Counted from the first letter of the stretch, positions 1-34,569 are shown. The stretch: DNA of 34,569 nt from Asterionella formosa (GCA_002256025.1 NKIB01000204.1:1-34569), one strand, 5' to 3'. Notes: a model not told the origin generated them from the sequence alone. Numbers and translations: made by a program.

Positions 1-47
1 GCCTTCCCCATGTGTGGAATTTCATAATTGTTGTCTCCATTCACCAG

Positions 48-135
48 CAAGAAGTGGTAATTTTGCTGAAACTTAAGATTTAGCTGTCTTTATCCCAGAT
101 TGAAATGTTAGTTTAAGCAAAATGACCGCAACTTG
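48..135. mobile_element. 88-bp MITE, copy 1 (PIF/Harbinger-like, CAG target-site duplication)
   Basis: ~28-bp TIRs (CAAG..GGTAATTTTGCTGAAACT / AGTTTAAGCAAAATGACCGCAACTTG). Flanked by direct CAG at 45-47 and 136-138, giving an empty site CACCAGGTA. Homologous to 8526-8601 and 27576-27663. Confidence 0.85.
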
Positions 136-647
136 CAGGTACCTGAATGCATGTACATAAATTATGAATTCTTATTTCGGAATTTAGTCCTCCAAATGTA
201 CATGGTAAGTATAGGTGATTTTTTAGTTTTATACATACTAGCTCCTCATCACTAGGCCTACATATGATGGTAGGTCTAGTAAAAAATCCCAAAAATATGA
301 GACAACCATACATACTTGGCTGTAGTGATAACACCGAGCAAACCACAGTGACAACCAATCAATGACAAGCAATAGGAACTTACATTTTCCAACAAGGACG
401 TTCCTGTGCTCATTCAACTTGTGTCAAAGCAAAACTTAAAACTTTCTGAATTGACACCTACTGGGAACTTTCTTCTCCTCCATTTATGAAATAACACAAG
501 AACGTAGATTGCGAAGAAATACCCAGTGTGTGGGTGCAAAATTTGGTAGTACTAAGTCGCTCACATTTTCTGGGGCTGTCTGAAACGATATTGCCGATGG
601 CTGCCACTGGATATCTCGTGAGATTCTATATACCCATTCAAATTTGT

Positions 648-2681
648 CTATCGCAAAATGGACCGGAATGGAGCAAGATCCTGCATTTGAATTCGATCTT
701 GATGTTCTTGACGCTCACGCTCACGACGTATTTCTTTGAGACGAGTAGCTAAATCAACCGGATGTAGCGTGAGTGCTACCCGTTGTTGCTGATTTCGCAA
801 TACGATCACCGTCAGTTCATTGCCAACAGCTGCAGAATCAATCAACCTTCGGGCATCATCTGATGATGTTACCTTTTTCCCTCCAATTTCAATCACGACG
901 TCCCCTTCTTGTAAACCTCCCAGCTGGGCAGGTGTACGGGGAAAGACCCTGGTGATGACCGAGCCTTGCACTTCAGCAATTGGACTCTTCTTGTTATCTT
1001 CGTTCCACTGCCGAGCGTATTCTGGTGTACATGTCGACATGGAGATACCAAGATAGCCGTGATGAACATGCTTGCCCTCAGACAAGTCTGCGATTATTTC
1101 GCGAACGCGATTGATCGGAATAGCAAAACTGGTTCCTTCCATGTTGGCTCGTATACAGGCATTGATCCCGATCACTTTTCCGGTTTCAACGTCGACTAAG
1201 GGACCACCTGAGTTGCCTAAATTAATCGCAGCGTCAGTTTGGATGTAATCCACTTTCTTATGGGGTATTCCAACGACAGTAGAAGAACGCTCGAGTCCGG
1301 ATACAATCCCCATTGTCACAGTATTATCCAGGCCTCCTGGAGTGCCGACTGCTATAACAATCTGACCCACCTCCAACTCATCACTGTCACCTAATTCTGC
1401 GACAGGCAAGTTCTTCAAAGAGGCGTTGTCCCTCTCGCCAGACACAATTTTCAATACAGCAATATCGACTATCTCGTCTGTTCCCTTGACTTCTGCTTTA
1501 AAGATTCTGCCATCGGTTAATGTTACTGATACCTTCGTTGCGTCCTCCACTACGTGTGCGTTGGTCAAAATGAGCCCGTCGGACGAAAAAATAAAGCCAG
1601 ATCCTTGCCCTTGCTGAATCCAAGCAGGAGGATGTGGAGTTACCATTTCTTCTTGCATGTGTGTTTCTGTATCAATCCTCAAGACCGAAGGGCCCACTTT
1701 TTGAACAGCGTGCTTCACGAATGAAAGCACCGACGCTCCCCACATAGGCACCAAAGTTTCACTCCTTATAGACGTTGATGAGTCTTCCGATAAACGGCTT
1801 GATGCAATTGATTCTTCAATTTGAGGTAGATTTCGCTGATGAATTTGAAGAAGGCCACTTGCACTCGATGTTATCCAGTCTTGAAGCATGCGATCGACTA
1901 TCGGGTACACAATGAAACCATATGCTATAGCAGCAACTGTAAATGAAGCCAAGGTAGCCCGTCGAATAAATGGCAATATACCACCTCCCTTCTTCTCTTG
2001 CACTTTTAGTGCGTTGCCAGAAAAACCAGTAGCGGGTTTCTTTCCTATTAATGGAGGCTTTGGGGTCAAAGGCGGTAAAGGCCGCACAATTCCGTCTTTC
2101 AACTGTTTCGGTCCACGAAAGAAAAAAGGTACGTTTCTTCGACGCTTATTATTTGTCTTTTCAAGAGGTGAATTCGGATATTCAATACCTTTAGTGTTAT
2201 TTTCCTCCGAAGTAGCAGGGCGTTCAAATAATTGTATGGTTTCATTGTCCATTTTAGAGTGGTCAGATTCAAAGTCATAGTTTTCCTCATTTTGTGTCAC
2301 GCTGTCATTGATTGCTTGGACAGTTGAATTGAAAGGTAATGCGATGAACAGACTTGCTTCAGTGTCGTTAGTCGATGTCAAGAAATTAGTTTTATAGTTT
2401 GTTTTATTCATTGTCGCGCCCACGTCAGCAGTCGCCTCCTTCCAGTCTCTCCTTCGCCACCAGATCCATTTGCGCTTCTTCGATTCTCTAGAATTCTCTT
2501 CTAAATTTGTTGTTTTCTTGAGGAAATGTGTTTCTAAGTAATAATCTCGCTTGGATAAAGTAGAAATAAAAGGGGATAGACTCGGTTGAAAGCTTACAAC
2601 GGATCTCGGACTGCATACAAGCAAGTGTATCAAAACAGTTTGAATACACTGACGGAGTGTCATCACTTGGCGTTTGCTCAT
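648..2681 (-). CDS. HtrA/DegP-family (S1C) serine protease with C-terminal PDZ domain and long N-terminal extension; probably plastid-targeted
   Basis: Uninterrupted 677-aa frame from ATG 2681 (alternative ATG 2663). Motifs GQGSGFI, LTNAHVV (His), DIAVLKI (Asp), IQTDAAINLGNSGGPL (Ser), and PDZ GYLGISM..GDVVIEIGG. The hydrophobic N-terminus followed by VVS-FQP resembles a diatom bipartite signal. TM-like segment ATLASFTVAAIAYGFIVYPIV. Confidence 0.92.
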   Translation of the reverse strand: MSKRQVMTLRQCIQTVLIHLLVCSPRSVVSFQPSLSPFISTLSKRDYYLETHFLKKTTNLEENSRESKKRKWIWWRRRDWKEATADVGATMNKTNYKTNFLTSTNDTEASLFIALPFNSTVQAINDSVTQNEENYDFESDHSKMDNETIQLFERPATSEENNTKGIEYPNSPLEKTNNKRRRNVPFFFRGPKQLKDGIVRPLPPLTPKPPLIGKKPATGFSGNALKVQEKKGGGILPFIRRATLASFTVAAIAYGFIVYPIVDRMLQDWITSSASGLLQIHQRNLPQIEESIASSRLSEDSSTSIRSETLVPMWGASVLSFVKHAVQKVGPSVLRIDTETHMQEEMVTPHPPAWIQQGQGSGFIFSSDGLILTNAHVVEDATKVSVTLTDGRIFKAEVKGTDEIVDIAVLKIVSGERDNASLKNLPVAELGDSDELEVGQIVIAVGTPGGLDNTVTMGIVSGLERSSTVVGIPHKKVDYIQTDAAINLGNSGGPLVDVETGKVIGINACIRANMEGTSFAIPINRVREIIADLSEGKHVHHGYLGISMSTCTPEYARQWNEDNKKSPIAEVQGSVITRVFPRTPAQLGGLQEGDVVIEIGGKKVTSSDDARRLIDSAAVGNELTVIVLRNQQQRVALTLHPVDLATRLKEIRRERERQEHQDRIQMQDLAPFRSILR

Positions 2682-2756
2682 CCTTTGACTTTCGCAATGT
2701 TCATTGAGTATCTTTTTATCCAACCTGCGATGGTCATCCCTTGATCCTTGAAATAA

Positions 2757-3170
2757 NNNNNNNNNNNNNNNNNNNNNNNNNNNNNNNNNNNNNNNNNNNN
2801 NNNNNNNNNNNNNNNNNNNNNNNNNNNNNNNNNNNNNNNNNNNNNNNNNNNNNNNNNNNNNNNNNNNNNNNNNNNNNNNNNNNNNNNNNNNNNNNNNNNN
2901 NNNNNNNNNNNNNNNNNNNNNNNNNNNNNNNNNNNNNNNNNNNNNNNNNNNNNNNNNNNNNNNNNNNNNNNNNNNNNNNNNNNNNNNNNNNNNNNNNNNN
3001 NNNNNNNNNNNNNNNNNNNNNNNNNNNNNNNNNNNNNNNNNNNNNNNNNNNNNNNNNNNNNNNNNNNNNNNNNNNNNNNNNNNNNNNNNNNNNNNNNNNN
3101 NNNNNNNNNNNNNNNNNNNNNNNNNNNNNNNNNNNNNNNNNNNNNNNNNNNNNNNNNNNNNNNNNNNNNN
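2757..3170. other. Assembly gap (414 N)
   Basis: Run of N. Confidence 1.
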
Positions 3171-3830
3171 ATAACCGCCAAACAATTGTCCCAATCCGTT
3201 CCTCCCACTCTGAAGTTGTTGTCATGCTCAACTGCTCTTACCACCTGATGCTGCAGCTCCCCAATGCACTAAGTCACGAATTGCATCATTCATCGCTGTG
3301 GATGTCAACTTCCTTGCCAGCAGCAGGATATCACTCAAGGAGAAAGTTCAGTGCGTCCTTCCTCCCTTTGGCACATACATGGTGCAAGGGATACCAGCCA
3401 GCTACGTTTGCTTTTGATGGCTAACAAGTCAGGATAAGTGTCCGCCATGTGCACCACAACAGGCATGTTCGCAGTCAAACATGCTTCCCCAAATGGAGTA
3501 CAGTGTTGATGAGACTTCATGTGGAGTACTTCTAGGCTCAAGGCGAGCAGCACCTTAACTTTCTCCAGGTCGGAACAAGCACACACCACATGCACAGGGG
3601 TGAGTCCTTTCTTGTCCAATTCAATCAGGATAGATAGATTCTTCATGGTCAGAATTTTCACCAATTCCGCTCGATCCATTAAGGCGGACGCAATATGTAA
3701 TGTGGTGTGACCATTTCCTCATTTGGTAGCCTTGGCCATCAAGGTCATTTTGTCCCAAGTCACGAGAAATTCAATCAGCTCCAATGCAGCATTTGACTTT
3801 ATCAGTGGATAGGTTCAATCGATTGCCTAC
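3171..3830 (-). pseudogene. Ankyrin-repeat protein remnant
   Basis: Successive ankyrin-like units: ALELIEFLV..*GNGHTTLHIA, GLTPVHVVC, CTPFGEAC and a frameshifted GWYPLHHVC. Contains an in-frame stop and a frameshift, and runs into the gap. Confidence 0.7.
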
Positions 3831-7130: not shown

Positions 7131-8525
7131 CGATGCATATGGTGGTGGGTATGATTTCTCAACCAATACGTAACCACATGTATGAGGCAGGTGTGTGCCT
7201 TGGTATATCATACCGGAGTTAGAAATCAACTCGGTGAGTAGTATGAGTACGGAGTACAATTTACGATTTTAATATTCTATTGACAATCTTAGTAGTTTCA
7301 CTTGTGTGTTTTCTAAAAGAGTGAGCTTAAACTAAAAGTAATTTTGAAATGTAGTTTCGATTGAAACATGGCAACTCCTACATGTCTCTGAAATGAATTT
7401 GTTCTTTGTTCCTTGGAGGCGAGGTTCTTCGTAGTTCCTACAGCTGTAGCAGAGTAGATTACATCCTCTTCCTTGTAACAATATATATCCATCTAGCCTA
7501 GATAGATTCTAGGACATAGATGTTCCTCTACTGAGATGCTTCTTTCAGGTATCTGCAATATGATGATTGGATTGTTCCTCAATCCTTTAATAGGATGAAT
7601 CGATTGTTCTTCAATCCTTTAGACAGAACTGATTTGTCTCTCCAATTTTTGTTTGCCAAACATAGGGAAAACTTGATAGAATTCGCCCTTCAACATTGTT
7701 CTATCAAATGTCTGAAGGTTATCAACCTTGGTATCTAATTGTGCGTTGTTCCATCAAACACAACGACTAGTAGGGAAATGTTGTCTTCACGCAAAGTGGA
7801 GACCTAACTGGGAATCAGGAATCAAGAATTCTTCTGTGTTTCAACTACCAGTAGCAAAGTATGTATATCAAATATTAGATACATATCTTTTGTCAATAAA
7901 ATATATCATATTTATAAGATCATGGGTATCGTACAATATGTGATACAGAATTTTGTTGTCAGCATAGCCTTTTTTGATATACTCCAGTATGTATGATAAA
8001 TGTACAGAATACTACTGTTCTTATGTCACAAAACTTGGCCATAAAATCCAGCAAACTGGAAAAATCGGTTGGTGATAAGCAGCCCCGCCTTGGCGCCTAT
8101 TTCCAACGTCAGCCATCTTGCTCCCCATTTCCCGCTCCTCTTTCGCTCCGACGACCGCAACTCTCTCTACTACAATCTCCATGCCTCTTAAACAGCTGCA
8201 ACGGCACACAACGTAAAAAAGACGCTCCTCCAACTTCATGGCCTTAGTTACAAGATCCTCTCAATAACCCTCCGGAAGTTCCTGTTGCAAAAAATCTACT
8301 GCCTCTAGTAATGTTCCTGTCCTGGAACCCCTGCTACTAGCTGGCTCGCTCCCCCGCTATATCTCCGATCCCACCTCAACTTCCGCTGCAGGCTTCCAAC
8401 AAATCTGGCTGTTTTTTTCAACATGGTGCTAGTTGATTGCTAGTTCACTACTGTAGATTTTACTACGGTCATATAAAATTGCACTGGAGGTTGCATTTTT
8501 GCATATACCATGATCCTGGTACCTG

Positions 8526-8601
8526 CAATTCTGCTGAAACTAAATATTTAGCTATTTTATTCCATATTAAATTGTTTTTTAACCACAATGACTGCAACTT
8601 G
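8526..8601. mobile_element. MITE copy 2 (76 bp, deletion in left TIR; CTG TSD)
   Basis: Homologous to 48-135 and 27576-27663. CTG at 8523-8525 and 8602-8604, giving an empty site TACCTGGTG. Confidence 0.8.
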
Positions 8602-8613
8602 CTGGTGCCCTGG

Positions 8614-8961
8614 TGAGCAATCCTGCTCAACAACACATAGGGTTCGGGTTACATAGATTATATCAGAACTATATCAGGAAAGAACTTGACCAACACCTAT
8701 TGAATACTTAGTGTCAACCTAGGGGAATGAGTTGCACACAAGGATTCACTTAATACTACTACTTCTAGTTAGAAACAGAACTCCATTAGGAGAGAACTTG
8801 AAAGGTTTTTCCTTACATTATATCAAAACTCTATGAGGAGAGAACGTAACAAACACATATTAAATACTTTAATGTCAACCTAGGAGAACAAGTTGCACAC
8901 TTGGATTAACTAATAAGCTCATACAATAAACAAATACTAATACTTCTAGTTAGATACTTCA
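8614..8961 (+). mobile_element. Solo LTR of the Gypsy family (with internal duplication), CCTGG TSD
   Basis: Begins TGAGCAATCC and ends GATACTTCA (TG..CA). CCTGG at 8609-8613 and 8962-8966. Homologous to 14008-14203 and to the LTR at 33237-33400. Confidence 0.85.
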
Positions 8962-9279
8962 CCTGGTAGTACTCCCTCTACTTTGGTATAGTTGTAACAC
9001 TCTCAGCAAATAACCTGGCTCAATCCACGTCATTCAAAAAAGCCCTCTGTAAGATTGAACATACATTTTCTACACAAGACAAGCAATGCAGGCTACTGGT
9101 GCTGGTTAGATTTGTATATTAAGGCAAGTATATTGCTAAATAGCGACACATGTAGATCATTTAGGGCTATTGAATTTACCTGAATTTTGCTAGCCAGCAT
9201 AGTTGTTTTACTCTACATGGATTGGTATACGATATTCAAGATTGGCTTAGAACAAATTTAACAAACAAGAGTAAAAATG

Positions 9280-9736
9280 CCTCTCTATATTTTTCCAGGA
9301 CATTGATTTGTAGGATCCACTATCTTCGTTGGTGAATGATTTGAGCACGCACTTCCAGATACATTAAAATTGTGATTCTACTGACACCAAAGGAATTGTT
9401 CAGCCAACTGAAGGTGAACACATGTTGTCCCTTTCGAGGTTGCAAAGTGAGCAATCAACAATGCATTGTCGCTGTTCTGATGTTAAATCCCTCTTCTTAT
9501 GCCTGTTGACTAACGAAGGTTCAACAAAAAAAAGGGGGGGGGNNNNNNNNNNCCCCCACCCCTCCACCCTCCCCCCCCCCCCCCCCCCCCCCCCCCCCAG
9601 AGCAAACATTTCAATCGAAGCATGATTTTACAAAAAAGCGCAAAAAACCCTAAGTCAGGTTCACCTAATTCTAGACTACTTAGAACATCTATTATGTCAA
9701 CCAATATGTTCGGAATAATTTTTAAATTGGAGGGGC
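9280..9736 (-). mobile_element. 5' fragment of a Tc1/mariner element (resembles the plant/stramenopile DD39D-type N-terminus)
   Basis: TIR GCCCCTCCAATTTAAAAATTATTCCGAA (9709-9736, minus) abuts TA. Broken minus-strand translation KKRDLTSEQRQCIV..FGVSRITI..IWK resembles the mariner HTH region. No catalytic domain is present. Confidence 0.65.
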
Positions 9737-11281
9737 TACTAGACGGAGAATTATTGGAGGTTGTGCTTCATGTGAGGCAGTGACCTAATGGGAGGTTGCA
9801 ACTATAACGGAACAGAGGCAGTACCTGGTACCTCATACGGAGTACCTGAGGAAGCAGTGTGGCATACTTGGACGGAAGCTTGGTATGCTGACTATGAATG
9901 CTTTGGGTGAGACGATCAGCGAATCGCTTGTGCAAAAATATTTACTAGATTTCACAAAGCTCGCATCATTGCACATAAAGTAAAAAGTTCAACAACGGAA
10001 GTGACGTAACAGAGCCACGAATTTGATTGGGCAAAGCAAACGACGAACACAGAGTTGTTACAGTTCCACAGTTGAAGGACAATTCAGTCCCGAGTCTTGC
10101 TTACCTGAAGGGCCAGAGTGTTTCGGATGGTACGACATAATCATAATCCATTTATCGTAGAGTAATCACTACTGTGACTTGCGCAATAGTTAGTCGACCG
10201 GGGTAACTCTTTTTAATGTCCTGAACGTGCAAACTAACAGGTAACTGATGCTACTTTCAAATTTACTTATTGATTCATGTCCTAGTACATGAATGTACGT
10301 TGTCACTCAGTGCCCCCTGGGGAAGTTTCGGTAAATGAGCAATTTTCTTTGCTTCCTCATTAGTGAGAACCGTCTTTTCTGCAATTTCCTCTGTTGGCAA
10401 CGCGTGAAATTAGGGGTACACGTAGAAACTATGATATTTAAACCAAAGACCATCCAAACGGTTGCTCGTGATCAATACCAAGTACCATTGTATCTATTGG
10501 ATGGCCACCTGGCAGCAGCTACGCTGATCCCGCACCTTCGTCTTTTGTTGTCGTTTAACAAATTTCTTTGGTATCCATGCAACCAATCAAATCGAATCGA
10601 GTATCGAGAACGGATGTTTCAGATTTCTCCCAATATACGTACTTCATCATGCGACAGTTCGAATGAACTTGCGCGGTATAACCAAGACTTTTAAGCGACG
10701 CCGTTTCGATCGGCCCTTTGTATGCGCCAATGAAAAGTGGTGTGTTAGTCCAATGAGGGAAATTGCTCCTCCGTAGTATCACGTTAAATGAATCGTTGCT
10801 TTGAAATTAGTGCTGTAGATTGGACCGCTACTCGTAATGAGAAAAGACGGTCAATAGGATTTCGAGTGACTCGGACGACTTTTCTGCAAGGGCAGGTAGC
10901 CAATATTGCATACGGTTCGGTACATGGTCCACCTGTACCAGCTTCACTGAAAAAATGTTTGTTGAAATGACCATTCGAGATCGGTTACAAGCTGTACTGA
11001 TTCCTCATCTTCAAGAAACATTCGCAGATACCCAAGCAATTACTGTCAGCGCCCTGGACACTTTCACTTGCAAAATCGCACATAAATCCCGGTTCTGCTC
11101 TCTAAGTTTAACCATTAGTAAGTCTCCCGTATCTATTGAAACGTAATCACAATAGCATAGTGTCCGCCATGACCATCGGCCTCTTCACTCTCATCCAGTA
11201 CAAAGTCCCTCTTTCTAACCGATCTCTTGCTTTTCCTCAGCTATTACCAAATCTTGGAAGCTATCATTCGTCAGTGAAAAA

Positions 11282-12274
11282 ATGGAGAAACTCAGTGTCA
11301 TCCTTGAAGAAGCCCAAAGCATAGCTTCCGACGACGGTTACAATTTCCTGAATAACAACAGAGTGAAGCCATTCACTTTCCCGGATAACATTTCTATGCC
11401 TTATGAGACTGTTAGTCTCGACTTCTCAACTAAACCTATGGCGCATAAGGGGGTCAAAGCTCAGAAGAAGCGCACTTGGAAAAAGCCTTTTGACAAGCCC
11501 AAGCGCCCGCTTTCCGCTTACAACTTGTTCTTCAAGGAAGAGCGGGAGCGAATTCTTTCCTCAATCTCCGATGATATGGCGACGGTTGATGTCAGCGACG
11601 GTCTCACCGAAGAGATGAGACGACGACGTCATCGCAAGACGCATGGAAAAATTGGTTTTGCAGATCTTGCCCGAAGTATCGCAGACCAATGGAAGTTGAT
11701 CGATAAATTCTCACGTTCTACGTATGAAACACAAGCTGATGTCGAGAAAGTCCGTTACAAGGCGGAACTTGAAGTATGGATGAAGAGTCGAAAAAATGAT
11801 GAGTCAAAGGTTCCCAAGGGAATAATGTCTGCTAAGATACAGAGTGCCACCCACCCCTCGCTCGCTTCCATGATGGCTGCAAGTCGAATGCGAAACCAAT
11901 TGCTTCATCAACAGTTGATGCTGCAACATCAGGCCCTCATGAGCCAGCAACAAATGCAAACCTTGATGGGACTTCCCAGCATGATTCAACAACAACAGCA
12001 GCACATCATGATTTTGCAACAGCAAGTCTTCTCCGGCCCTACTTTGCCATCTATGACCCAGTTATCTGTTAGCATTCCAAACTGTGTAGATATGCGATCC
12101 ATAACTGGAGAGCAATATGTTGCCCCTGATGTTTCCTTCTCATCGTTTGATTTCTTCGATGACGAGCCACTTCCAATGGAGCACGAATCGGTTGTGACGG
12201 TAGAGTCAGATCTATCGTCACTTGAAGATGACCTTACAAATTTCATGAACGATTTTGAAGCTGAGCTTTTATAG
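11282..12274 (+). CDS. HMG-box DNA-binding protein (330 aa) with Q/M-rich region and acidic C-terminus
   Basis: Intact single ORF. KPKRPLSAYNLFFKEER...RRRHRKTHGKIGFADLARSIADQWK...EKVRYKAELEVW is an HMG box with the insertion typical of diatom proteins. Confidence 0.93.
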   Translation: MEKLSVILEEAQSIASDDGYNFLNNNRVKPFTFPDNISMPYETVSLDFSTKPMAHKGVKAQKKRTWKKPFDKPKRPLSAYNLFFKEERERILSSISDDMATVDVSDGLTEEMRRRRHRKTHGKIGFADLARSIADQWKLIDKFSRSTYETQADVEKVRYKAELEVWMKSRKNDESKVPKGIMSAKIQSATHPSLASMMAASRMRNQLLHQQLMLQHQALMSQQQMQTLMGLPSMIQQQQQHIMILQQQVFSGPTLPSMTQLSVSIPNCVDMRSITGEQYVAPDVSFSSFDFFDDEPLPMEHESVVTVESDLSSLEDDLTNFMNDFEAELL

Positions 12275-12890: not shown

Positions 12891-12943
12891 GCATAAGTCT
12901 TAGAATTATGTTTAAAGTCTTAGATTAACTTTATTTATTAAAC

Positions 12944-22102: not shown

Positions 22103-23783
22103 TCAGATCGATTCTTTTGTGAAAGTCCAGTGTAGATTTCTTTGTACTAATATACGAGTAAATCGTTCATCAGTCCATTGATCAGTGAGACCATTTGAAA
22201 ATGAACTTTCTTCCCTCAAACTTTTTTTGATTAGTGGTTTCCCACCAATGTCGACAAACTCAGTAGAATGACGAATATCGTTCGCTGAAATTTCCTGCTT
22301 ATCTGGATTGAAACCCAAATATTTTTGTTGCAATCGGAATTTTACTTTCAGCACCAAGAAGCAAAATGCTTCTGTACTGGCATTGATCAGCGAACCAACA
22401 AAACGTGATTGCAATTCACACTGTGCCCGAAGACTGAGTTGAAATTTGTTCAGACCAGATTTGTCTCCTGTTAGAAATGGTTCTCCATGGCTTGTCCTCC
22501 CTATAAAATACACTGGAGTAATAACGCACATCACGCCAGACTTGGTATCCATGGATTCCCCTGTCAATGTCCTTTGACTGCGCAAAACGATAAAGCGTGA
22601 ACGCCCACCTAACTAAGTCATCAATATCCGTAGTCTGGAAGTTAGCTATATTCTGTTAGACCAGCTGGTGTGTCATGAATTATGTTAGCATTTTTAAATT
22701 CAAACATATTTGATAAGAATATAATCACCAACTCAAAACATCATGCTTTCAGAGCATCTCCCGCCCTGCAAGAACTTACCTAAGATTTTTTTAAATTGAT
22801 TATTCAATACATTCTGACATTCTCTCGCTCAACTTTTTAATGCACATGCCATCAAATGTTGATTTGATATAATCTAAACGTGCCTTGTTGGTACATTTAA
22901 TGGTCTGATTCATCGGAAGTAGTGCATCAGAAAGCTCTGGGTCACTCTTGCTCCAATTCTTTGCCTAACTCCAGTTTCACTATGTATAGCCGAGTTAGGC
23001 AACATTCGGCAAACCAATCCTGTTTGTGATTGTAAATGCCTTTCATACTACTTGGACCAGATAGGGCGGGATGGTTGATTCTCTTTTGGGACCAGAAAAA
23101 AACACATTAGATTGATATTCTTTTTTACAGTACCTGCAATTCACAAACTATAACCTCAAACTTACATGTTCACAGCAAAACTTCTTGTTCTTGAAAGCAA
23201 TCAAAACTCACAGCCATTATGACAATTGATGGATCGGTTCAATTTTAGCTAAGCAGTAAGGAGGAACGACGTTCTGATGTGGCAGCTGAAATTGAAGATT
23301 CTTGATAACCTTGTATGGACGAGTTTTGAACCGAATTACGACCTTTGTAGTGATTAAGTTCATTGACCAATTGAAAGAATCCTTTGGAAAGTGCAAAATG
23401 TTTTTCCCTCAGTTTTTCATGTACTTGTTGGTCCGTGCGATTAGAAAATTTATGATAAGGTACCATGTTGTCCATCTGCATCCGGGAGTTATTAATGGTA
23501 TCATTGACAGGAGCCATTTTTCTTGTATCAACAACTGAAAAAGAAACATCATCATCGCTTTCAGTAATACGGGAGCCTTTGTACTAGTAGCTGATGGTGT
23601 CCCCATCAACGATGGGGTAGTACCCCAACTAACTCCCTGTCGCCGATTGGGTTCCTTTGGATAATTGCCTATTCGCTTTTTCTTTTTTAACTCATTTTGG
23701 TACTTGATTCTTTGTTCCATACCGGCAGTATTTGCCACATGTCGCTTGTTTCCATGAAACTCTTTATGGTTTTTTGAAGACAT
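22103..23783 (-). pseudogene. Degraded uncharacterised ORF upstream of the Plavaka-like transposase
   Basis: Co-oriented fragments at 23409-23783 (basic, NLS-like KKKKR), 23245-23517 and 22103-22585. No recognisable domain. Confidence 0.4.
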
Positions 23784-25261
23784 TGTACTACTAGATAAAT
23801 GTTGTCGTTCTCTTCCTTAAAATTCGATGATCTTAAAATCTTGCTAGTTACAATGAAATGAATCATTAGCCACTACATATAATATTTCACGCTGTCTAGA
23901 TATGATACCATAAAACCAACAGTGCTATTTACATTAGCTATCATATACAAAATCAGAACATCATCTCAACAATACCAGACGTTCCATATTGAGAGTGCCT
24001 TTGATTTTTATAAATGTACGACACTTGATACATTTATATATTTGTAAACTTTATAACTATATACATGGTAAATAAATTTGAAATCGTTCTGTCATGTTAA
24101 CAAACAATGCCTGCTTCATGAAAAGAAATATGCAAAGTAGTAAAGCACATGACAAGAAAGGAAAGTTTACACAATAACGAAAAACATTGTGGCTTCGACA
24201 CATTGCGCCTTCGAAGGATGGAGTATGTTTAAGAAGGTAATGAAGCCATCAATGTGGTACTTGGATGACAATCGTCGGGAGGCAGGATAACAACAAATTG
24301 TAAACTAAACGCACATTTCCTTTTTTCTCAATTGATTCAATGGCTCGTTTTGCTTGTTGGGGAGCACCAATGTAAAACAAAACAAAATTGGTAAGTGCTC
24401 TTGTCGTTGGACTTATTCACTTCTGATGGAACATAACTGACGGACACGCCACTTTAAGTTCTCTCAAAGTTAAGCTAACGAAAATGAATTGGTAAGTTTT
24501 ATTTGGCAACATTGGAAACCTGAAACTTACTTATTCAAGAATTTACTGACAATTTACTATTACAGACTTATGCATCACTTGCTTTGATTTGGCTGTGGTA
24601 AGTGAAGCAAGCAAGAGGATACGATGGAATGGCGTGATGTTGTGTCAGTGTAACATGTCTAGCTAACAAGTCATTCCTTCTCATTGTTACTGTAACTGCA
24701 TAGGAAAATAAAATCGATCAAACAACAGAATAGTCGGCAAGTTCAGAATGACACTAACAGCAGGGAGAGAGACACAACATTAGTAAGGCATTGCTTGGCA
24801 CAAGATTCAGAAAAGAGGAAGAAAAGGGCGAGACAGGAACAATGTACATTGAGCCGAGTAGAGAGAGAAACGTTGGGTTGCTGGCATGTAGAATAATAGA
24901 TAGCATTGCTAAATTTGATAGTTAAATTACGATCCATTTCAATCTATTTTGAACAATGCTTGTGATTAGAATTATGATCATGTTTACGATAGTTTTGCGA
25001 TGAAACAATTTACATGATAGCATAGAGTTGAGCTGATTTTAGGATGCGTTGTAGTAAAAATATACATCGGGCAATAACGAGGTAGTACAGGGGGTAGAAT
25101 TTTTTTCACATTTTGGTGGAATATTCTTACCAGGGTACGACTCGTACCTGTACCTGTGTACCTGGTGCACTGGCTGTGTTATGTTATGTTGAGGGATTAT
25201 ACTACTGATAAAACATCATAAATTAAAATAAACTTAAACATCAGTACAATTAAACATCAGC

Positions 25262-27383
25262 ATGGCAACAAGCAATGTTGACCAGGAGAGTAAATGAACT
25301 GACACATTCCCATGCTTACAAAAATGTACTTATTTCTATGATGTAGTACAGAGGTTATGGCAAATAGCCAATGATGGTACTAAAAGCTGTGAGTTTAGTG
25401 TAGAGGAGCCTGGGGAAAACAAGGATGATAACCAAACATTTGGCCAGTATTCTTCCATTAACTATAACTGCAAAAAAGGCATTGTAGTATTTTATTCCAC
25501 ATTTTCTTTTCACTTGGAATGTAATTACCCACAGTGGAAATCCAACAATGGTATGTGCCTGTCAATGACTTTGTCATCAAAAGGCCATAAAACAGAACAA
25601 GTCTACAGATAAGACAAGGGAAACATTAGAAGCAAGGCAGCCTCTAGAGTCTCACATTTAGCAAGATTTCAATCATGATGGTCATCCTTTTCTCATTCAA
25701 GTATAAAATATCCAATTCATCAATGGTATAAGCTGCTGCCTGTGCGTGTGTGTTGTGTCTGTCAGTTCCATGTGGTCCGCCAAATTGACAATTGCCCCCA
25801 ACTCACAAGAAAACTAACTGCAAATATTCGACTCCTTGTCGCTCTGATGGCCATGCTGCGTCTGTGTTGAACGAAAATTCTAAGGACGACAGGTATGCGC
25901 CAAGCCAGGTTCTCATTGTTTGCATCCCTGTCAAAAGGCAGTTGTTTTCTCCTTTCCTTGGCCATTATCTTGAGACGGAGTGGATGGACCAATGCACTAA
26001 CCCAAAAAACCGTGGGTTTTCCGCTATGAACTGACAATCCAGGAAATGATCAAGAAAGACTTAAACAATTCTGCAAGATGATGTGCATGCAGGAAAATCA
26101 TGAGTTTTGACAATTGAATAATGGTAAATTGTCAAAACAGGATCTCTAAGAACTCATTAACACATAAAAGTTGAAATGAATGCTCCTGAGATGATATTGT
26201 TTGAATGAGGGTGGCACATATCGTGGTGGTCAGCGCTGGGTAGTGTTCCTGACAAAGTTGCTTTTGCTGCAACAAATGCCAATAGCAACCCAAAATGGAA
26301 ATATCAGCCATATACTATCAAGGCGATCAATCCTAAACAAGTTCAGAGGTAACAAAGTTGAACGATTAAAACAAGTGAGCTAAAAGTTTTTAAAAAATAT
26401 TTTCGATCACTTGGTTGAGCTGGGCTTGGAAAAATGATGATGTGAGCCCTGTATGTCATTGTGAACCTTTCTGGTCACCTAGCCAGAGTACCCATGATGA
26501 TGTGCAAGACATTGGGGATTATAAACCATTCTTAGTTTATTTATTTCAGGTTCAATGCTGACTTTGAGACTGACTAAGTATATATTACTCGCTCATGAAT
26601 TCCTGGTTAATAGAGCATAAATTCTACTTTCTTCGTAGAGGTGACCGTTTAACCATAAGGAAATCACTGTATCATGATATTCTACTTCGAATTCAAACAT
26701 TGTAATAAGTGTTCTGAAATGTGTGGTTATGCCATTTACTAGGCTAAATGTTAGTAGAGCATGTCTATAACTGATGAACCATGTATCTGGGTTGGTTTAC
26801 ATAGCCGCACTATCCCTATATGTCAGATCCATTCTTGAGCTAGCTGAAGTTCTACTTTAGTAGAGCTTGTGGAATGGTCAACATTTGCTATATTTGTTGT
26901 AACTATTTAAATAGCCTTAATTTTAGGCTACCCAGCCGAGCAATATACCATAGGTCCACGTCACACAGCTTGCTCTAGGAACCAACAAACCAACAATCAA
27001 GCAGGTATTGCGGACAAACAAGCAAACATGGATGTGGATCCTGATAATGAAAGTAACCTTCCAAGACACCAAAACTATATTTGTTCTTTGGTAAGAATAG
27101 GAAGTTGGAATCACTAAACAAAAAACCAGAAAGGCTACTATTTACAAGCAGCAGGGCAGGCAGGGAGCAGGATGAGGAAAGATGCATCTACTATTGGCAG
27201 CGCAAGGTTGTCTGGGATGCAGTGGCAACTCTAGCTAGTTTGAGTGGGTACATGGCACATGTAGTAGCCCTGAATTAAATCTATGAGACATATGGTCAGG
27301 ATAAGACTGTTAATCACATTCTCGTCAACCAAATGTTGAAAGGTTGCAGTGGTGGTGGGCATCCACAACTACAGCCGTGTTAA
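25262..27383 (+). mobile_element. Crypton-like tyrosine-recombinase DNA transposon pseudogene with GCR1_C-like C-terminus
   Basis: Ordered decayed motifs: KKAL.YFIP, WNVITHSGNPT..VNDF..RQGK..ARQPL, DDRYAPSQVL..LGHYLE, LRTH*HIK (cf. GTHSIRK), CS*DDI, then SKTP/KTIFVLW*E*EVGI..KKPERLLFT..RKVVWDAV..IYETYGQ..GGHPQL. Confidence 0.7.
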
Positions 27384-27575
27384 GCTAGATAAATGTGTAT
27401 ACTACTAAATAATAACATAATTACTTACTATATGAAATTCAAATTTCATTTTCAATGAACTGTACCTTGTTATTTCATTGCCTGCTTCTTACCCAGTATA
27501 AACACCAGACCAGTTGAATCAGCATTACACACAACGAAGCTAGCAAAATCCGGCAACACCAGGTGCTGGTACCTG

Positions 27576-27663
27576 CAAGTTGCGGTAATTTTGCTGAAAC
27601 TAAAAGTTTAGCTATCTTTATCCCATATTAAATTGTTAGTTTAAGCAAATTTACCGCAACTTG
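27576..27663. mobile_element. MITE copy 3 (88 bp, best preserved; CTG TSD)
   Basis: TIRs CAAGTTGCGGTAATTTTGCTGAAACTAA / TTAGTTTAAGCAAATTTACCGCAACTTG (26/28). CTG at 27573-27575 and 27664-27666. Confidence 0.9.
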
Positions 27664-27899
27664 CTGGTGCATACCGTAGTAATCGGTACCAGGGTACTTC
27701 ATGCATTGTAACAGCATCGCCCCAGGTGACACGAGGTACCGGTACCTGGTTCCAGGCACCAGCAACGGTGGCACTGCCCACTCACACACAGTGCATGCTT
27801 TGTACATGCATCATGATAGTTAACTAGTGCACTAGCTTTCACTACGACAAAAAATGGTAGTATTGGGGGTAGAATTAATTGTCAATACTGGCACAGTAT

Positions 27900-29400
27900 A
27901 CAACGCACTACAAGCAGATGCAAGAACCACAGAAATTGACAAGAAACTCATGGAGATAGACCAAAATGACTGACATCCACCCAACAGCATCATTAAATTG
28001 AGTAAGGCATTGATGATGTTTATACATCCAAATCCGATCCAGACAGACCGTTTCCATCACACCGTACCTACACAGTATACAACACACTACAATCAAATGA
28101 AAGAATCGAAAAGAAACTCGTGGTGACAGACCAATCACAAAAAAGAAACCAACACCAGAGAAATAGCACCAAGGAGTGGGACACAAAGACAATCCTTTAC
28201 CCAATCACCACTTGCAATCCAATTCTCTGGCTGACATTAATAGTGCACCGGTCTATGAGAACCAATCCAAGAACAATGCTACCTTTTAACCCTACTTCTG
28301 CATGAGGAAGTGACTACCTATCCAAAATTCCACTGCCCCACATTCAATGTGGGGCAGTGGATATAAGTTATATGGGCCATGGAGTGCAACGACTACAAAC
28401 CTAGAAATAAACTATTAAGAATGCGCAATAAAAGTGATTATCATATACATTCGTTATCCAATAATTGCATTCAGACCCAAATAAATGGACATCATTTTTA
28501 TTTGTCTGTACGGTACAATGGGACCTGTTTTTGCATCAGTCGCACCCCTGGAACCCTAGAGACTACATGAAAAGGAAAGGTGGAAAATGCAGGAATCGGA
28601 CCCACCACCGCAGAAGGGTGTGCTCAACAAGCCATTCCCCTACACAACCTATAAAATACTACACAGTACCGGTACAGCATGGTGTATGATCAAAGTACAT
28701 TTACCAGTAGCTATACGCTATACTTATGTATTTCATATACCCCTGAAGGTCCGGTAGCCTATGGTTTAAGCACACCTTTTCAGTTTCGACTCATGATTTT
28801 TTCCATGCCTGCCAGACAAGTCTGGCTTTCCATTTCAACTCTATTCAGGTTGCGGCCACGGCTTAACCCTCGTTTGGAGCAAAACTTCGCTAGGGTTGTA
28901 AAATCGCATGGAACAGGGAGTTCATTGCAGTGAATTTCCATGATTCAAGTGTCTGTTCGAATATTTATATTGAATAGTAATTGACACCAGATTTATAGAG
29001 TTTCATTTCAAACAAACAAAAATGATATTTACAAGTTTATATTATATCCTCGTTGGTGAAATTAGATAGAATATTACTCCATGCCAAAACACACATATAA
29101 ATCAGTAGTATGCTGGTATGTAATGAGCAATGATTACAAAATTCATTCATGGATGGTTACCAAAGGGTTCCACTAGAGCTCTCATATCCAAAGGGAGTAC
29201 ATCCATTCCTCATTGCAAGGATTTGGAAACCACAGAGCACATCCTCACCTGTAATAATCCCAAAACCCGGATTTGCTATGGGCCAGATTGGACAAAAAGA
29301 CAGGTCCTGTTGTACCGTACTACGGACGAATAAAACCGGTACTAATTGTGTCCATCTATTTGGTGGGCCCGAGTGCAATTATTGGATAGCTTTAATGTAC
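27900..29400 (+). mobile_element. Degraded non-LTR retrotransposon (LINE) 3' fragment, probably interrupted around 28670-29070
   Basis: ITKFIHGWLP..PHCKDLETTEHILTC (29130-29250) matches the C-terminal zinc knuckle of LINE ORF2. The upstream extent is poorly supported. Confidence 0.5.
28329..28361. repeat. Perfect 16-bp inverted repeat with 1-nt spacer
   Basis: TCCACTGCCCCACATT-C-AATGTGGGGCAGTGGA. Confidence 0.95.
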
Positions 29401-32400
29401 CATAAAATTTAATTGACATTTTAAGAATAGCAATCGCCAAGTATCCCCTGGATTCTTCACAAAGCATAGTAATGTATATCATTACAATTGATAGAGGGAA
29501 ATTATATAGGATGTGTTTGTTGACTGAGAATAAATTGTATATCATCATGTAGGCCTATTAAATTACAATCTTGTCTGCTAAAACTGGATGATTGACGAAA
29601 AAGGTAAGGATGAGTTCATCATCCAATTCAATTGAGAGAGTAGAAGTGGAAGTTGATGCTGAAGATTTCGGCCCAATATCATCCCCCACCAAAGACTCAA
29701 GTCTCGGGAGGCGAGAGATGGAATCTGCTACAGCATTATCAAGCTCTTCACCTCGTGAAAGTAGGATTATATTCTCCAATACAAATCCTCCAATGTAGCA
29801 CACGTTGCTTGAGTGTGTAAGGTATTATAAATAAATTTATGATGATCAGTGTGAACGTGTAGAACCGCACCCAATAGCATAGAGAGAAATTATTTGGAAG
29901 TTTCTACAATAGTAGATAATTCATTTTCAATAATGTTATAATTTTTCTGAGTAGCAGACAATTTGCGAGAATAATAAGAAACAGGGAGAGTATTTTGCAT
30001 AATGGCTGACCCTAATTGATAATCAGAAACATCAGAAAAAATATGGAATGTAAAATTATGATCAGGATAACGCATGAGTGTACCTGCAACTAACTATGCT
30101 TTCGTTGATTCAAAAACTTATTGATGTGTAAGAACAGGTAACGAAACAAAGGGACCAGTTCCAATTTAATCCGTGAGTGGTTCGAGAGCATGAAGGCGTC
30201 GAGGAAATAATTTCTCGACAGTAGTAGGTAACCGCACCTAGAAAAGATCTGACGTGTTTGAGATTGGTAGGTGAAGACATATTAATCAATACTAGGCTGG
30301 AACTTATAAGTCCAAGGTTCCAGTCCATTAAAAGTTAACCAATACCCTAACCAATCTGTCTCTTGGACTGCCCATTCACAGTTGGATGGATTAAGTGTGA
30401 AACCATTTGCCTGTATGCGATTTAAAGTAGTATCCAACGAATGTAGGTGATCTTGAAATTCATAGAAAAACAACCCACATCATCAATATAACTTTACACG
30501 TAATCTAAATCAAAAGTATAATATTGCATAGACTCATCCAATTTTGTGAAAAATGCATAGCCAACACGTTTAGTGAGAATATTTTGTATTCGAGGTAAAG
30601 GATAAATATTGCGATTGATGACTTTATTTAAGAAACGAAAAATTTGACACCCATCGAAAACTTCCAACCTTTTTGGGAATAATAAAAGTAGGATATGCCA
30701 TTTGGAAGCACCACATTTTTGTAAGACTCAAATATCACCTAACAATTGTAATTCGGTTTTAAAAACTTCTAAATGAATATGGGCGACCGTATAGTATGCT
30801 CGTTGATGGCCGGGAGTAGCATCTGATAATAATTCCAAATGAACCTGTTTATGAGGAGGATAAACTTTAAATTTGCCATCAAATCATGTTTGATATTTAG
30901 ACAATTTAGTTTGTCTAGTACGTGACCATTGAACTGTTGTCAAATGCACTTTTTTATTCACCACTGCATTGATACTATTCCCGTAATTTATTCAGCAGTT
31001 TTAATTTCCAGAGCATATGAGGATTCCGTAACAAGAGATGCATCAAAAAATAAAAATATATCATGTAAACGTTCAAAAAATCTGAGAGGATGCATAGAAA
31101 CAATCATATCCATACATGACATGGTGTTGTCAACAAATTCAATGGTTAAACCAACATGACGAAGGAAATCACGTCCAAAAATAGCATCAAATGTATATAA
31201 GCCATTGAAAACTTGCATTTTTGTTGTAAATACGAGCAGACCGATTAAATTTGGGAAGAATTGTTGGATCATGTCAAATAACACTGGCATGAGATGAATA
31301 AGTACCACCTATGTTATGTTTAATTGGGATGTCTTGTTAGACAGAGAAATACCTTGAGGCATAACCCATTCATGTATTAAAGATAGGGATCCTGTACTAT
31401 TTAATAGTACCCATTATTTTTTGCATAAGAATAACATCCACCAATCGTGGGGCTAATAGCAGAGACATCGGAGGAACTAAATCAATACATACAAACATGT
31501 CTTTATTTGTGAAACAGGAATCCGGAATCGGACCCTGGTATTTATATGGAACATCAGGTCCATCGCTCTATACATTTATATATGTCCCGTGGTACAGCAA
31601 CAGCGGTATCCATTGTAAGTTCAACCTGTAAATGAACATTATCCAGGTGATGATTGATGTGAGAATGCTCAATGAGTCATTATAAATGGCATCGCTATTT
31701 TTGCACGTACCTCTGTGATGGCAATAAGCATTCTGCTATTATATAGTAGGGAAAAAAGCCACTAACTGACCGGCAGGAGGGTTCATGACCGCTGAAATCT
31801 ACATATTGCTTCTTGTTAGGATCGGCACATGGCATGGTACCAGGTACCAGGTACCCCAACCGGATGGATGATTATTACGACCCCATGCATTTAACATAGT
31901 ACGAGCAAGGAACAGGCACAGGGTTAACAGTGTCAGTATGATAGCTTTCCGTACTAGGGTTACTGTGTGCTCTGCCCTCCTCATGATCACTAAAATTTCC
32001 GTGGCCATTATGACAACCTGCTCGACCGCCTTGAGTATGAGGGTTCTGAAAGCAATTGCCTCAAGTATATGTACCTTCAGGGTGTACCGGGCAAGGGCCA
32101 CAATAATCATGTGAGGTACAAATGGCTTGTAGAGCTTGATGATGGACGGTCGCTTGTCAATCCCAGGCATGACCAGCCGTGTTCACAAAAGCACGCACCC
32201 TTCCACGACCACTTGGAGTAAAATTGTTTTGGTATAACTGACGACTGACGCGCTCGTTCTCTTGATACGTCACATGATTACCTTCAGCAATACAAAGACG
32301 ATTTTGCGTGATATTCTAAAAAGCGTTCTTAGGAACTTGCTTATTTCGATCCTTAAATGACTGTTTACTCTCGAAGTAAGTAAGAACTGAGCGAATCGAT

Positions 32401-32795
32401 TGGTCTGAGGTCCTTCTTGGCATGATTCAATTTAAACTCTTGTTGCCACTCATTGGGCATTGATCGGATCATGATGATATGCATGTCTACTTTCGAAAAT
32501 CCAGTTCGATCTTCTAGATGAGGGAATAATTGGAGTACCGGTAGCCTGTTTTAATTTTTAAAATGAGCTCCGAAATCCATCACCAGCATTGAAAAGGTTT
32601 TTGATAGATAGCAAAGCATCCATTGACGTTGACATTGAAAATTATTGTTTTGAAGATGATCATCAAGCCATAAAACCATCGCTTCATCGAAACTATCATA
32701 GGATTGATCTTCTGGGTTAACTTCCACATTTAACCAATCCGATAAGGCAATATTGGTCAAAATCATTTTGAAATAGGAAAAGGTACCTGCAGGGG

Positions 32796-33023
32796 GGCTA
32801 AAAGCACATTGTCCATAAATAAAAAGTGTTGCACATATAAGATCAGGGGTATTGTACAATAAATGGCAAAGAATTTTTCTGTGCATGATACACATTTTGT
32901 TATTTGTGTGATAAGGTGATAAGTACATAACATACATATGAATATTTGATTAGCATGTTTATACTTATAATGTTTGATCACATTGTTCCAATATTGATCA
33001 ATATTGAGCATGTGCTAGTAGCC
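32796..33023. mobile_element. Possible MITE inserted in the Gypsy gag
   Basis: AT-rich block interrupting gag. Imperfect TIRs GGCTAAAAGCACATTGTCCATA vs the reverse complement of the right end, GGCTACTAGCACATGCTCAATA (17/22). No clear TSD. Confidence 0.45.
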
Positions 33024-33236
33024 ATGATGTCATGAACTTGACTCAATCTGATAAACAAGGCTTCCACAGAGCTTCCATCAATCACAAATTGGTCAAACAA
33101 TTAAGATCCTCCACCAGTCAAAGCAACTTGAAACGTTTAAGTTTTAATAGTAATCTTTGATCATAGGATTGACAGGAACTCTTGAATACATAGCTATGTT
33201 TGTTCTGGTCTAATCAGACTCTTTTTGAATTCAAAG

Positions 33237-33400
33237 TGAAGTATCTAACTAGAAGTATTAGTATTTGTTGAATATATGAGCTTATTATTTAATCTTGATA
33301 TGCAACTCATTATACAATATGTGTTAGTTGTGTTCTGATGTAAATGATATAACTATAACCCTATATACATCTGTATAGTGTACAGGATGACCATCGCTCA
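33237..33400 (-). repeat. 5' LTR of the Gypsy element (164 bp)
   Basis: Minus strand TGAGCGATGG...AGATACTTCA, homologous to the solo LTRs. Flanked by CCTGG at 33401-33405. Confidence 0.85.
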
Positions 33401-33415
33401 CCTGGTACCAGGGTA

Positions 33416-34569
33416 CCACTTAAAAACTGTAAGCCACCGCTATGACGACTTTTGAACTGTAAGCCACCGCTAAACGGAGTAAATGCACGGTTTGAACTTA
33501 GTTTGGAAGATACGTTAATTATTGTCACGAAGGAGTTGTTCAGATTTATATAGCGAGTAAATACGTACGTACTTGTATTCTTGCATTGTGTAAGTTGTTA
33601 TCTACTTATTACGGCCCAAAGGTTGCTGTCGACGCGAAAATGCGAAAAATGGAAAATTTCATGTTTACTCTATTGAGCTGGCATCGTCTTTCTACACGTG
33701 CACATGTATTTGGAGAAATTCTTGCCATAGAATTAATTTAGCATTATTAAATGTGTGTACGACGTCATTGTGCTTTCGAATACATTATGCGTCAGAAGAA
33801 TTCGGTGATGATGCAAGCGCAAAAAGCATACTGCATCGCGCAAAAAAGGTAAAGTAATACGAAAATAGTTTCTGTAGTATGAACGGAGTAAATATAATCA
33901 CGGTTTGGGGGGAAAATATAGTCATGTATGTATAGAAAAATATGCACTGTAAGCCACCGCTATACAACAATCTTAATGACTTTAAAAAAATTAGATCTTC
34001 ATGGATTTATACACTGAATCGAAACTGATTACTTATTCGTAGAAAAGAGTGCATCATGTAACATACACTTCGTACTTTTATCAGGTTTCGATTGTTACCG
34101 TAAAACCTGGTGTCTCGTATCCCCCCAGATACCTGTACCCCCCTTTGTACATCTGGCGCAACACTCCCAAATATTTCCTGTGTACAGAAAAAATCTTGAA
34201 TTGTCTCCTGATCCAGCCTTGTATTTTGGGCGACACGAGTCACACGCCTAATGACAATGTCCTCACGGGCAAGCCAGCGCTTGATCCGTTTTTCAATTGC
34301 CTTCAGCGACACATTTTCGTTCCCAGGTTGCCTCTTAAGCTCAACACTGAGCATCCTGGTGGTGCAGGCCCTATCTTGAAGCCGCAACTGGTCAAAAAGA
34401 GTCTTCAATCCTTCGAAATCAGCAGCACTTTTTGGAGAGCGGCCCGGGTGAGCGATTTTTTTCATCAACACCTTCCTCTGAATCACACCTTCTTCCTGCA
34501 GAGGAATCTCCGCCACCTCCGCCGGAACCACAACCATCGCACCATCCAGCATGGACTTCCAGCTCCGGA
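33416..34569 (-). mobile_element. pogo/Tc5-like transposon derivative (CENP-B-type HTH ORF, catalytic domain missing); runs off the window
   Basis: ORF 34007-34552 reads HPGR..LRLQDRACTTRML..IKRWLAREDIVIRRVTRVAQ and loses similarity after QETIQDF. TA|CCACTTAAAAACTG terminus. 17-mer ACTGTAAGCCACCGCTA at 33426, 33456 and 33946. Confidence 0.7.

Follow-up and report, generated by a model that had tools for sequence, protein, structure and literature searches.

Whether two mobile elements that move by unrelated mechanisms can use one and the same target site is the question raised by a 34,569-nucleotide stretch of the Asterionella formosa assembly (GCA_002256025.1, NKIB01000204.1:1-34569), which was analysed at its full length and is referred to as the window. 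It carries a MITE family (miniature inverted-repeat transposable elements) and a family of Ty3/Gypsy long terminal repeat (LTR) retrotransposons, for which an initial annotation had proposed a common YACCWGGTR target (W, A or T). The analysis indicates that these two mechanistically unrelated elements probably integrate at one palindrome, approximately GGTA-CCWGG-TACC, with YA-CCWGG-TR as its minimal core. This answer builds on direct observations: the element boundaries, the duplications, a site that recurs among independent copies of the LTR, and a Gypsy gene order.

MITE copies and their duplication

The MITE family comprised three copies, as follows.

MITE copy 1: 48-135, between CAG at 45-47 and CAG at 136-138; reconstructed empty site TTCAC-CAG-GTACC; shares 86% identity with copy 2.
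MITE copy 2: 27576-27663, between CTG at 27573-27575 and CTG at 27664-27666; reconstructed empty site GGTAC-CTG-GTGCA.
MITE copy 3: 8526-8601, left arm shortened, between CTG at 8523-8525 and CTG at 8602-8604; reconstructed empty site GGTAC-CTG-GTGCC; matched to copies 1 and 2 by BLAST.

The copies measured 76–88 bp (n = 3) and carried terminal inverted repeats (TIRs) of the form CAAGTTGCGGTAATTTTGCTG..., with the arms of copy 2 spanning 40 nt at 88% complementarity. The three empty sites proposed in the initial annotation were read as described there, with CWG on both sides of each element. Because CWG is palindromic except at W, this is the sole base that can distinguish a direct from an inverted repeat. 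The same W was found on both sides in three of three copies (CAG/CAG, CTG/CTG and CTG/CTG), that is, direct and non-complementary, and no duplication of any length appeared in any copy when the boundary was shifted outwards. All three reconstructed empty sites shared the 11-mer GGTACCTGGTG (copy 1 on the reverse strand), which reads GGTAC-CWG-GTG, and the half-sites followed YAC-CWG, with T or C and then A in six of six. As ACCWGGT covers 11 of 34,133 window positions, three matches in three correspond to P ~3e-11. A gap of 4 nt separates copy 3 from the duplication at the first of the solo LTRs listed below.

Other interpretations of the MITE were considered and rejected. A role as an intron generator, considered because GC-AG splice signals are similar to its ends (GCAAGT...TTGCAG), was excluded by inspection, as no rotation of the element plus 3 nt gave canonical ends while restoring the original sequence. 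Mobilization by the Gypsy integrase would require TG...CA ends and a 5-bp duplication, whereas the parse shows T...T or A...A ends and no 5-bp repeat. The left flank of copy 1 (1-44), considered as a possible LTR end, had TTCA alone in common with one.

LTR copies in the window and in metagenome contigs

A BLAST comparison found four LTR copies in the window and no others.

Solo LTR 1: 8614-8961 (+), TGAGCAATCC...GATACTTCA, tandemly duplicated internally over 160 bp; CCTGG at 8609-8613 and 8962-8966, a 5-bp target-site duplication (TSD).
Solo LTR 2: 14008-14203 (+); CCTGG at 14003-14007 and 14204-14208.
Partial LTR of a deleted Gypsy-family element: 13704-14000 (+); internal-like piece at 13704-13906, then the 3' part of an LTR to 13995, followed by CCTGT.
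Truncated, frameshifted Ty3/Gypsy copy: 29422..33405 (-); 5' LTR at 33237-33400, with GGTA-CCAGG before it on the minus strand (CCAGG at 33401-33405).

Lengths ranged from 164 to 348 bp, and the ends TGAGC...ACTTCA characterized the family across these four copies and 17 metagenome contigs; solo LTR 2 ends in TTTA (14203). The initial annotation had enclosed both solo LTRs in CCTGG and set the Gypsy 5' LTR against CCAGG and the partial LTR against CCTGT, and each was found in its place. On the plus strand, the sequence beside the Gypsy 5' LTR, at 33401, is CCTGGTACC. The left duplication of solo LTR 2 begins 2 nt past the CCTGT of the partial LTR. A further candidate LTR start at 34449 (CCGGG-TGAGCGATTTT) matched at ~18 of 23 nt, was absent from the BLAST results and lay in a region of open reading; it was left out of the counts. 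Three copies of the 17-mer ACTGTAAGCCACCGCTA fall in a 540-nt interval (33425-33470 and 33945-33962) immediately outside the Gypsy 5' LTR.

Metagenome contigs were scanned with a degenerate 26-letter pattern that stops exactly at the last LTR base; it contains no flank, so that flanks were not preselected, and the scan covered the LTR family only. The 17 matching contigs are designated here by the prefix L. Viral contigs yielded 0 matches for the LTR pattern and 0 for the Gypsy pol. At the LTR end, 15 of the 17 continued as ACTTCA-CTTTGAA(T/A)TCAAAAAGAGTC, matching how the internal region of the window copy begins; as for the other two, one contig stops there and L017 goes on with CCAGGTACTCC. 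At the LTR start, the internal 3' end ...AAAGGTTTTCCC..GTGTGGGAGAG, with its purine tract, runs straight into TGAGC in 9 of 17, with the purine run GGGAGAG directly before the LTR in nine contigs. The remaining contigs are cut before the start (three), enter genomic flank (four) or, in L017, show the terminus of a 10.7-kb repeat described below. Since neither the LTR-internal nor the internal-LTR junctions contain CCWGG, the LTR spans TGAGC...ACTTCA and excludes CCWGG. The possibility that CCWGG is an invariant part of the termini, which had been named as a finding that would overturn the proposal, is thereby removed for the retroelement.

The genomic left flanks were TCAA-CTTGG (L003), GTTA-CCTGG (L010), GGTA-CCAGG (L014) and GGTA-CAAGG (L015), and the right flank of L017 was CCAGG. 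Thus, three of the five contig junctions were exact (CCTGG, CCAGG and CCAGG) and two were one mismatch off (CTTGG and CAAGG).

Target-site statistics

Nine independent LTR insertions were counted, four from the window and five from contigs. Exact CCWGG was present on at least one side in six of the nine, and the other three differed by one mismatch (CCTGT, CTTGG and CAAGG). With the window's own frequencies as background (0.0014 for exact CCWGG, 0.020 within one mismatch), the probability of at least six exact sites in nine is 7e-16, and that of nine in nine within one mismatch is 4e-16. W varied among the exact insertions (T, T, A, T, A and A) and was identical on both sides in the two that could be checked, namely the solo LTRs. 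Outside the pentamer, the half-sites carried A at -1 (10/11), T at -2 (8/11), G at -3 (6/11) and G at -4 (7/11), and the extended LTR target is GGTA-CCWGG-TACC. Beyond 9–11 nt, the flanks were unrelated in all nine insertions, and LTR sub-families merely 76–85% alike kept the same target site. The shared core proposed at the outset stands: YA-CCWGG-TR fits both the MITE and the LTR sites, and their staggers, of 3 bp and 5 bp respectively, have one W as their common centre.

CCWGG alone was barely enriched in the window (49 observed against 38.2 expected; 3 of 100 shuffles reached 49). The over-representation of GTACCWGG, which the initial annotation had put forward as a check, was borne out, with 13 observed against 0.84 expected (15-fold) and none of 100 shuffles reaching 13. 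Both YA and TR flanked 9 of the 49 CCWGG sites, against ~1 expected from base composition, and four of these nine are LTR junctions. The W-less palindromes TACCGGT and GTACCGG were also among the most over-represented 7-mers.

Identity of the retroelement

The window copy of the Gypsy element starts internally with CTTTGAATTC... at 33236 and breaks off at 29422 inside the integrase. The sequence after its 5' LTR, CTTTGAATTCAAAAAGAGTC, was matched to no tRNA. A Pfam match to RT_RNaseH_2 (E 4e-14) was obtained at 29893-30093, protease and reverse transcriptase fragments were recognized by eye in the internal region, and the DNA was 78–81% identical to L001 and L016 over 32809/32455-29422. In the partial element, 13704-13887 matched L014 1573-1763 at 81%, and 13780-13906 matched L003 1618-1755 at 79%.

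The pol of L001 (198-3782, -; 1194 aa) contained RVP (148-240), RVT_1 (394-551), RT_RNaseH (639-735) and Integrase_H2C2 (860-915) by Pfam; rve was not listed for it at E<=0.001, and an integrase DDE core and a GPY-type C-terminus were read by eye. The order protease, reverse transcriptase, RNaseH and integrase places the element in Ty3/Gypsy, as had been annotated, in line with the TG...CA ends of the LTRs and a TSD of 5 bp (CCTGG/CCTGG in both solo LTRs), within the 4–6 bp of that group. No Chromo family was among the six Pfam matches of this protein, which stops shortly after the GPY-type motif. Judged by its domains, the LTR element is a non-chromoviral Ty3/Gypsy.

Nine contigs (L001, L002, L004-L006, L008, L009, L011 and L013) have the order internal 3' end, LTR, internal 5' start; either the elements stand in tandem element-LTR-element arrays or the assembly has collapsed at the LTR. 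On the reverse strand of L001, the last ~70 bases, after a 3' LTR fragment, resemble what we take to be a sequencing-library adapter, and this contig end is probably not genomic.

GTACC clusters and arrays

All five GTACCWG clusters of the initial annotation were present. In addition to the Gypsy 5' LTR junction, they are as follows.

9821-9848: unoccupied palindrome GTACCTGGTAC, with a further GTACCTG nearby.
25129-25167: unoccupied cluster TACCAGGGTAC...GTACCTGTACCTGTGTACCTGGTGCA.
27686-27760: unoccupied cluster GGTACCAGGGTAC ... GGTACCGGTACCTGGTTCCAGG, with MITE copy 2 lying 20 nt upstream.
31836-31855: (GGTACCA)x2.9 array within the Gypsy gag-like region.

The last of these has 14 extra bases, i.e. 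two 7-bp units (TGGTACC TGGTACC), relative to L016 (~2880) and L001 (~3760), which read GGGGTACC-G-TGCC at the homologous position. GGTACCW arrays can therefore grow or arise de novo. Similar GTACC arrays were found in L003, L010 and L015, in the latter two beside the insertion. Excision footprints were examined as a source of 7-bp arrays and set aside, as leftovers of MITE or LTR ends failed to reproduce the arrays convincingly.

Proposed mechanism and alternative explanations

In the preferred explanation, the Gypsy integrase would make a 5-bp staggered cut that duplicates CCWGG, and the unseen transposase of the MITE would make a 3-bp staggered cut that duplicates CWG, as in Harbinger3_DR and NuwaI (PIF/Harbinger-ISL2EU-Spy). 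Both staggers would share one dyad, the central W, and each enzyme complex would read the palindrome itself through base-specific, twofold-symmetric contacts. The MITE would then belong to the CWG-duplicating Harbinger lineage, and the shared site may reflect convergence, one of several possible causes.

The two insertions would affect the site differently. The TG...CA ends of the LTR complete YA and TR at both junctions, so that each LTR insertion makes two YA-CCWGG-TR sites from one; MITE insertion destroys the site and leaves CCWGC and GCWGG. The annotated regeneration of the motif by TSDs consequently holds for the LTR element but not for the MITE. Self-reinforcing nesting, which had been derived from it, is a half-correct conjecture, and no re-use of a rebuilt junction was seen. 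The double occupancies (MITE copy 3 with solo LTR 1, and the partial LTR with solo LTR 2) occupy adjacent units of CCTGGTR arrays that were already there, such as CCTGGTA-CCTGGTG-CCCTGGTAG, and neither sits at a junction site rebuilt by an earlier insertion.

The flanks themselves might be misread. If CCWGG belonged to the LTR termini, or if the LTR copies were segmental duplicates with their flanks carried along, no target would need to be invoked; within the window alone this would fit, as every LTR end touches CCTG(G/T) or CCAGG. It is refuted by the nine contigs in which the purine tract meets TGAGC and the 15 in which ACTTCA meets internal sequence, with no CCWGG between, as well as by the differing W and the unrelated distal flanks of the nine insertions, and it retains practically no probability. 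For the MITE, the corresponding argument is that CWG is part of the TIR (ACCWGCAAG...CTTGCWGGT), with no defined target and a shared site that is an artefact of where the boundary is drawn. The C and G of CWG are indeed self-complementary, only W discriminates in a sample of three, and ACC and GGT also pair as an inverted repeat. The identity of W in all three copies and the lack of any duplication with outward-shifted boundaries speak against this, as do the outer bases GGTAC and GTG, which are mutually non-complementary yet recur in all three, and the CWG duplications of NuwaI, proven by paralogous empty sites (PMC4482050). We regard this parse as improbable.

A different kind of explanation retains the sites but not their reading by the enzymes: a common cause, be it a bound host protein, unusually shaped or flexible DNA or the modification of a base, would steer both machineries to GTACC arrays, for example (CCWGGTA)n and GTACCGGTAC, and the innermost CWG or CCWGG alone would be due to each enzyme's own chemistry. 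Such a shared landing pad is conceivable but on balance unlikely. It would account for the excess of GTACCWGG, most copies of which are unoccupied, for the W-less 7-mers TACCGGT and GTACCGG, for the insertions into multi-site clusters at distances of 4 nt and 2 nt, and for the arrays beside the insertions in L015 and L010 and the one that gained two 7-bp units in the Gypsy copy. It is less compatible with L003 (TCAA-CTTGG) and solo LTR 1 (GTGC-CCTGG), in which the pentamer occurs without the full GTA context, and with the base-level precision of both duplications, which is a prediction of recognition at the enzyme level. Moreover, the available part of the report on zebrafish Harbinger3_DR, which has the same core, mentions no such arrays (PMC3016246). 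A broader version, in which arrays of the GGTACC(W)GGTACC type serve this diatom as dedicated pads where a common cause (host factor, DNA shape or modified CCWGG) draws at least two unrelated machineries, the arrays grow in 7-bp steps as a by-product, and LTR insertions multiply the pads and concentrate transposons away from genes, is more doubtful still.

Several points weigh against recognition of one palindrome by both enzymes. The MITE is represented by three copies, all in this window: further copies gave 0 matches in viral contigs and none in the 17 metagenome LTR loci, and 0 of 44 pattern matches in prokaryote genome contigs were real, as the likeness ended at the 22–24-nt pattern, within a gene of Flavobacterium. 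No autonomous element of the Harbinger type came to light, the open reading frames (ORFs) of the window being without a transposase or a Myb-like ORF, and the MITE TIR begins with CAAG, as opposed to the GGG usual in NuwaI. Empty alleles were seen for neither the MITE nor the LTR insertions. Metagenome contigs of four runs were aligned to 8400-28399 at 85% likeness, and the joints listed, which the 10.7-kb repeat dominated, included none across any MITE or LTR, which is not evidence against empty alleles; contigs spanning MITE copy 3 and solo LTR 1 in runs X2 and X4, the sole bridging contigs among those listed, carried the filled form. For the retroelement, three of the nine insertions deviate from exact CCWGG, and the left flank of L017 reads AGACG, since only 1 nt separates the terminus of the 10.7-kb repeat from this LTR. 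Both flanks of one complete element are present in none of the 17 contigs, and the window Gypsy copy is without a 3' LTR, the TSDs being those of the two solo LTRs. Finally, GTACC-based palindromes, including GTACCGGTAC, are over-represented generally, and part of the shared context could be regional rather than read by an enzyme.

Other repeats and genes in the window

Two further repeats bear on the use of CCWGG as a boundary.

25166..27558: unclassified repeat, initially annotated as a Crypton block; CCTGG (25161) on the left and CCAGG (27559) on the right.
14329-25080: very high-copy unclassified repeat of ~10.7 kb, which served as a negative control.

The borders assigned to the Crypton block exist, but they differ at W and hence are not a duplication, and the Crypton label itself is unsupported. 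No tyrosine recombinase was detected in 13 ORFs of 55–104 aa (25298-27275) with Pfam at E<=0.05, which gave two chance-level matches only (E 0.03–0.04), nor in the three larger ORFs scanned in the block, and the block has no terminal repeats. Its summed contig depth, which does not equal copy number, was ~100–500x that of single-copy bins.

At the left end of the 10.7-kb repeat (14329) there is no CCWGG, and the window flank reads ...TATCACT; CCWGG is thus not a feature of every repeat boundary in the window. In run X1, 113 contig ends diverged at 14329 with a flank agreement of just 0.39. The right end was located only to a 667-nt depth bin, at ~25075-25100. The depth of this repeat reached 1–2.7 million (run X1) against ~1,000 in 10401-12401, and L017 4868-6330 matched 14324-15726 at 82–86%. 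Pfam at E<=10 on seven of its ORFs (up to 255 aa) returned chance-level matches only, a word-based search among longer proteins gave 0 matches, and a protein atlas had no usable match for one ORF; an atlas lead to HTH_33/DDE_3 for another (0.80) was rejected as chance level. Near the right end, the motif GGTAGTAnnGGGGGTAGAATT occurs at 25081-25101 and again 2.8 kb farther on, at 27856-27876, and the 31 nt at 27840-27870 match L003 745-775 at 100% identity. These may represent the terminus of a further repeat family.

Overall, the window is rich in transposons and has a GC content of 34–45%, and its DNA was present in freshwater and "algae" metagenome runs. Repeated DNA makes up most of 13.7–33.4 kb, with a summed contig depth 100 to >1000x that of 10401-12401. 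The one clear host protease domain is in the ORF at 648-3221 (-), which carries Trypsin_2 and PDZ domains (Pfam) and whose nearest named relatives are from the raphid pennate diatoms Cylindrotheca, Mayamaea, Nitzschia and Fistulifera, at ~60–67% identity; on this basis the window was assigned to a raphid pennate diatom. A run of N at 2757-3170 (414 bases) lies inside this "857-aa" ORF and accounts for the overlapping ORFs in all frames at 2678-3424. A second run of N, at 9543-9552 (10 bases), stands between poly-G and poly-C and resembles an assembly join. On either side of an HMG-box ORF (11219-12274), 39-nt inverted repeats (9700-9738 and 12490-12528) are 85% complementary, and the bins flanking this region are ~5–10x deeper than its interior; the pair may stem from a small repeat present twice in inverted orientation, or delimit a gene-carrying element. 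Just past the Gypsy break point, ORFs at 29127-29409 (+) resemble by eye, and without Pfam support, the Cys/His-rich C-terminus of a non-LTR reverse transcriptase.

Comparison with known systems

The MITE repeats fit the precedent that the initial annotation had drawn from zebrafish, where Harbinger3_DR integrates into AAACACCWGGTCTTT (PMC3016246). NuwaI, of the PHIS superfamily, is likewise defined by CWG TSDs, confirmed through paralogous empty sites; its TIRs usually start with GGG, it encodes a transposase and a Myb/SANT ORF, and it is reported from 16 animal genomes only in the available text (PMC4482050). The MITE resembles both in its 3-bp CWG duplication, the palindromic target with an ACCWGGT core, its TIRs and its short, non-autonomous form. 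It differs from NuwaI in having a diatom rather than an animal host and a TIR starting with CAAG, and from Harbinger3_DR in the outer target bases, which are GGTAC/GTGC here and AAAC/GTCTTT there. A CWG-duplicating MITE in a diatom would carry the NuwaI/Harbinger3 lineage past animals.

Among LTR retrotransposons, most integrate non-specifically, and sequence-specific integration is rare; in the portion of a review available to us it is described as exclusive to errantiviruses and their derivatives, confined to insects, with the 4-bp palindromes TATA, CGCG and ATAT as targets and the unusual LTR ends AGT...AnT (PMC5408687). The Gypsy family behaves like the Drosophila errantiviruses (gypsy, ZAM and Idefix subgroups) in that insertion is sequence-specific and a short palindrome becomes the duplication (PMC5408687), but it is not a member of that group: its duplication is the 5-bp CCWGG within an 11–13-bp palindrome, its LTRs end in TG...CA, and no env ORF was seen. 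With such ends and such a target, the family falls outside the statement that errantiviruses alone are specific, as worded in that portion of the review. A diatom Gypsy element with canonical ends that hits an 11–13-bp palindrome would widen the known range and supply an integrase that naturally recognizes a long site, which is of interest for inserting DNA at chosen targets.

Retroviral integrases have a weak palindromic target consensus, such as GT(A/T)AC in HIV-1 (PMC5408687), and plant LTR elements have a weak preference for palindromes (PMC6911290). The likeness lies in a twofold-symmetric target centred on the staggered cut and in a 5-bp duplication with a central W. The retroviral and plant bias is weak and statistical, whereas here six of nine insertions match exactly over the five duplicated positions and nine of nine are within one mismatch. 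If a retroviral-type integrase and a Harbinger-type transposase do choose the same dyad, they would offer a natural test of whether the enzymes, or else the site's DNA and chromatin, determine target choice.

In the main texts of one full-text collection, no CCWGG-targeting LTR element and no CWG-duplicating element was found for diatoms. GyDi (Ty3/Gypsy) and Harbinger-like elements have been recorded in diatoms, with target duplications described as heterogeneous (PMC2806351). For GyDi, the available part of that source reports no target specificity, whereas the present Gypsy family is specific for CCWGG, a motif that also provides a handy marker of insertion boundaries for genome annotation in this species.

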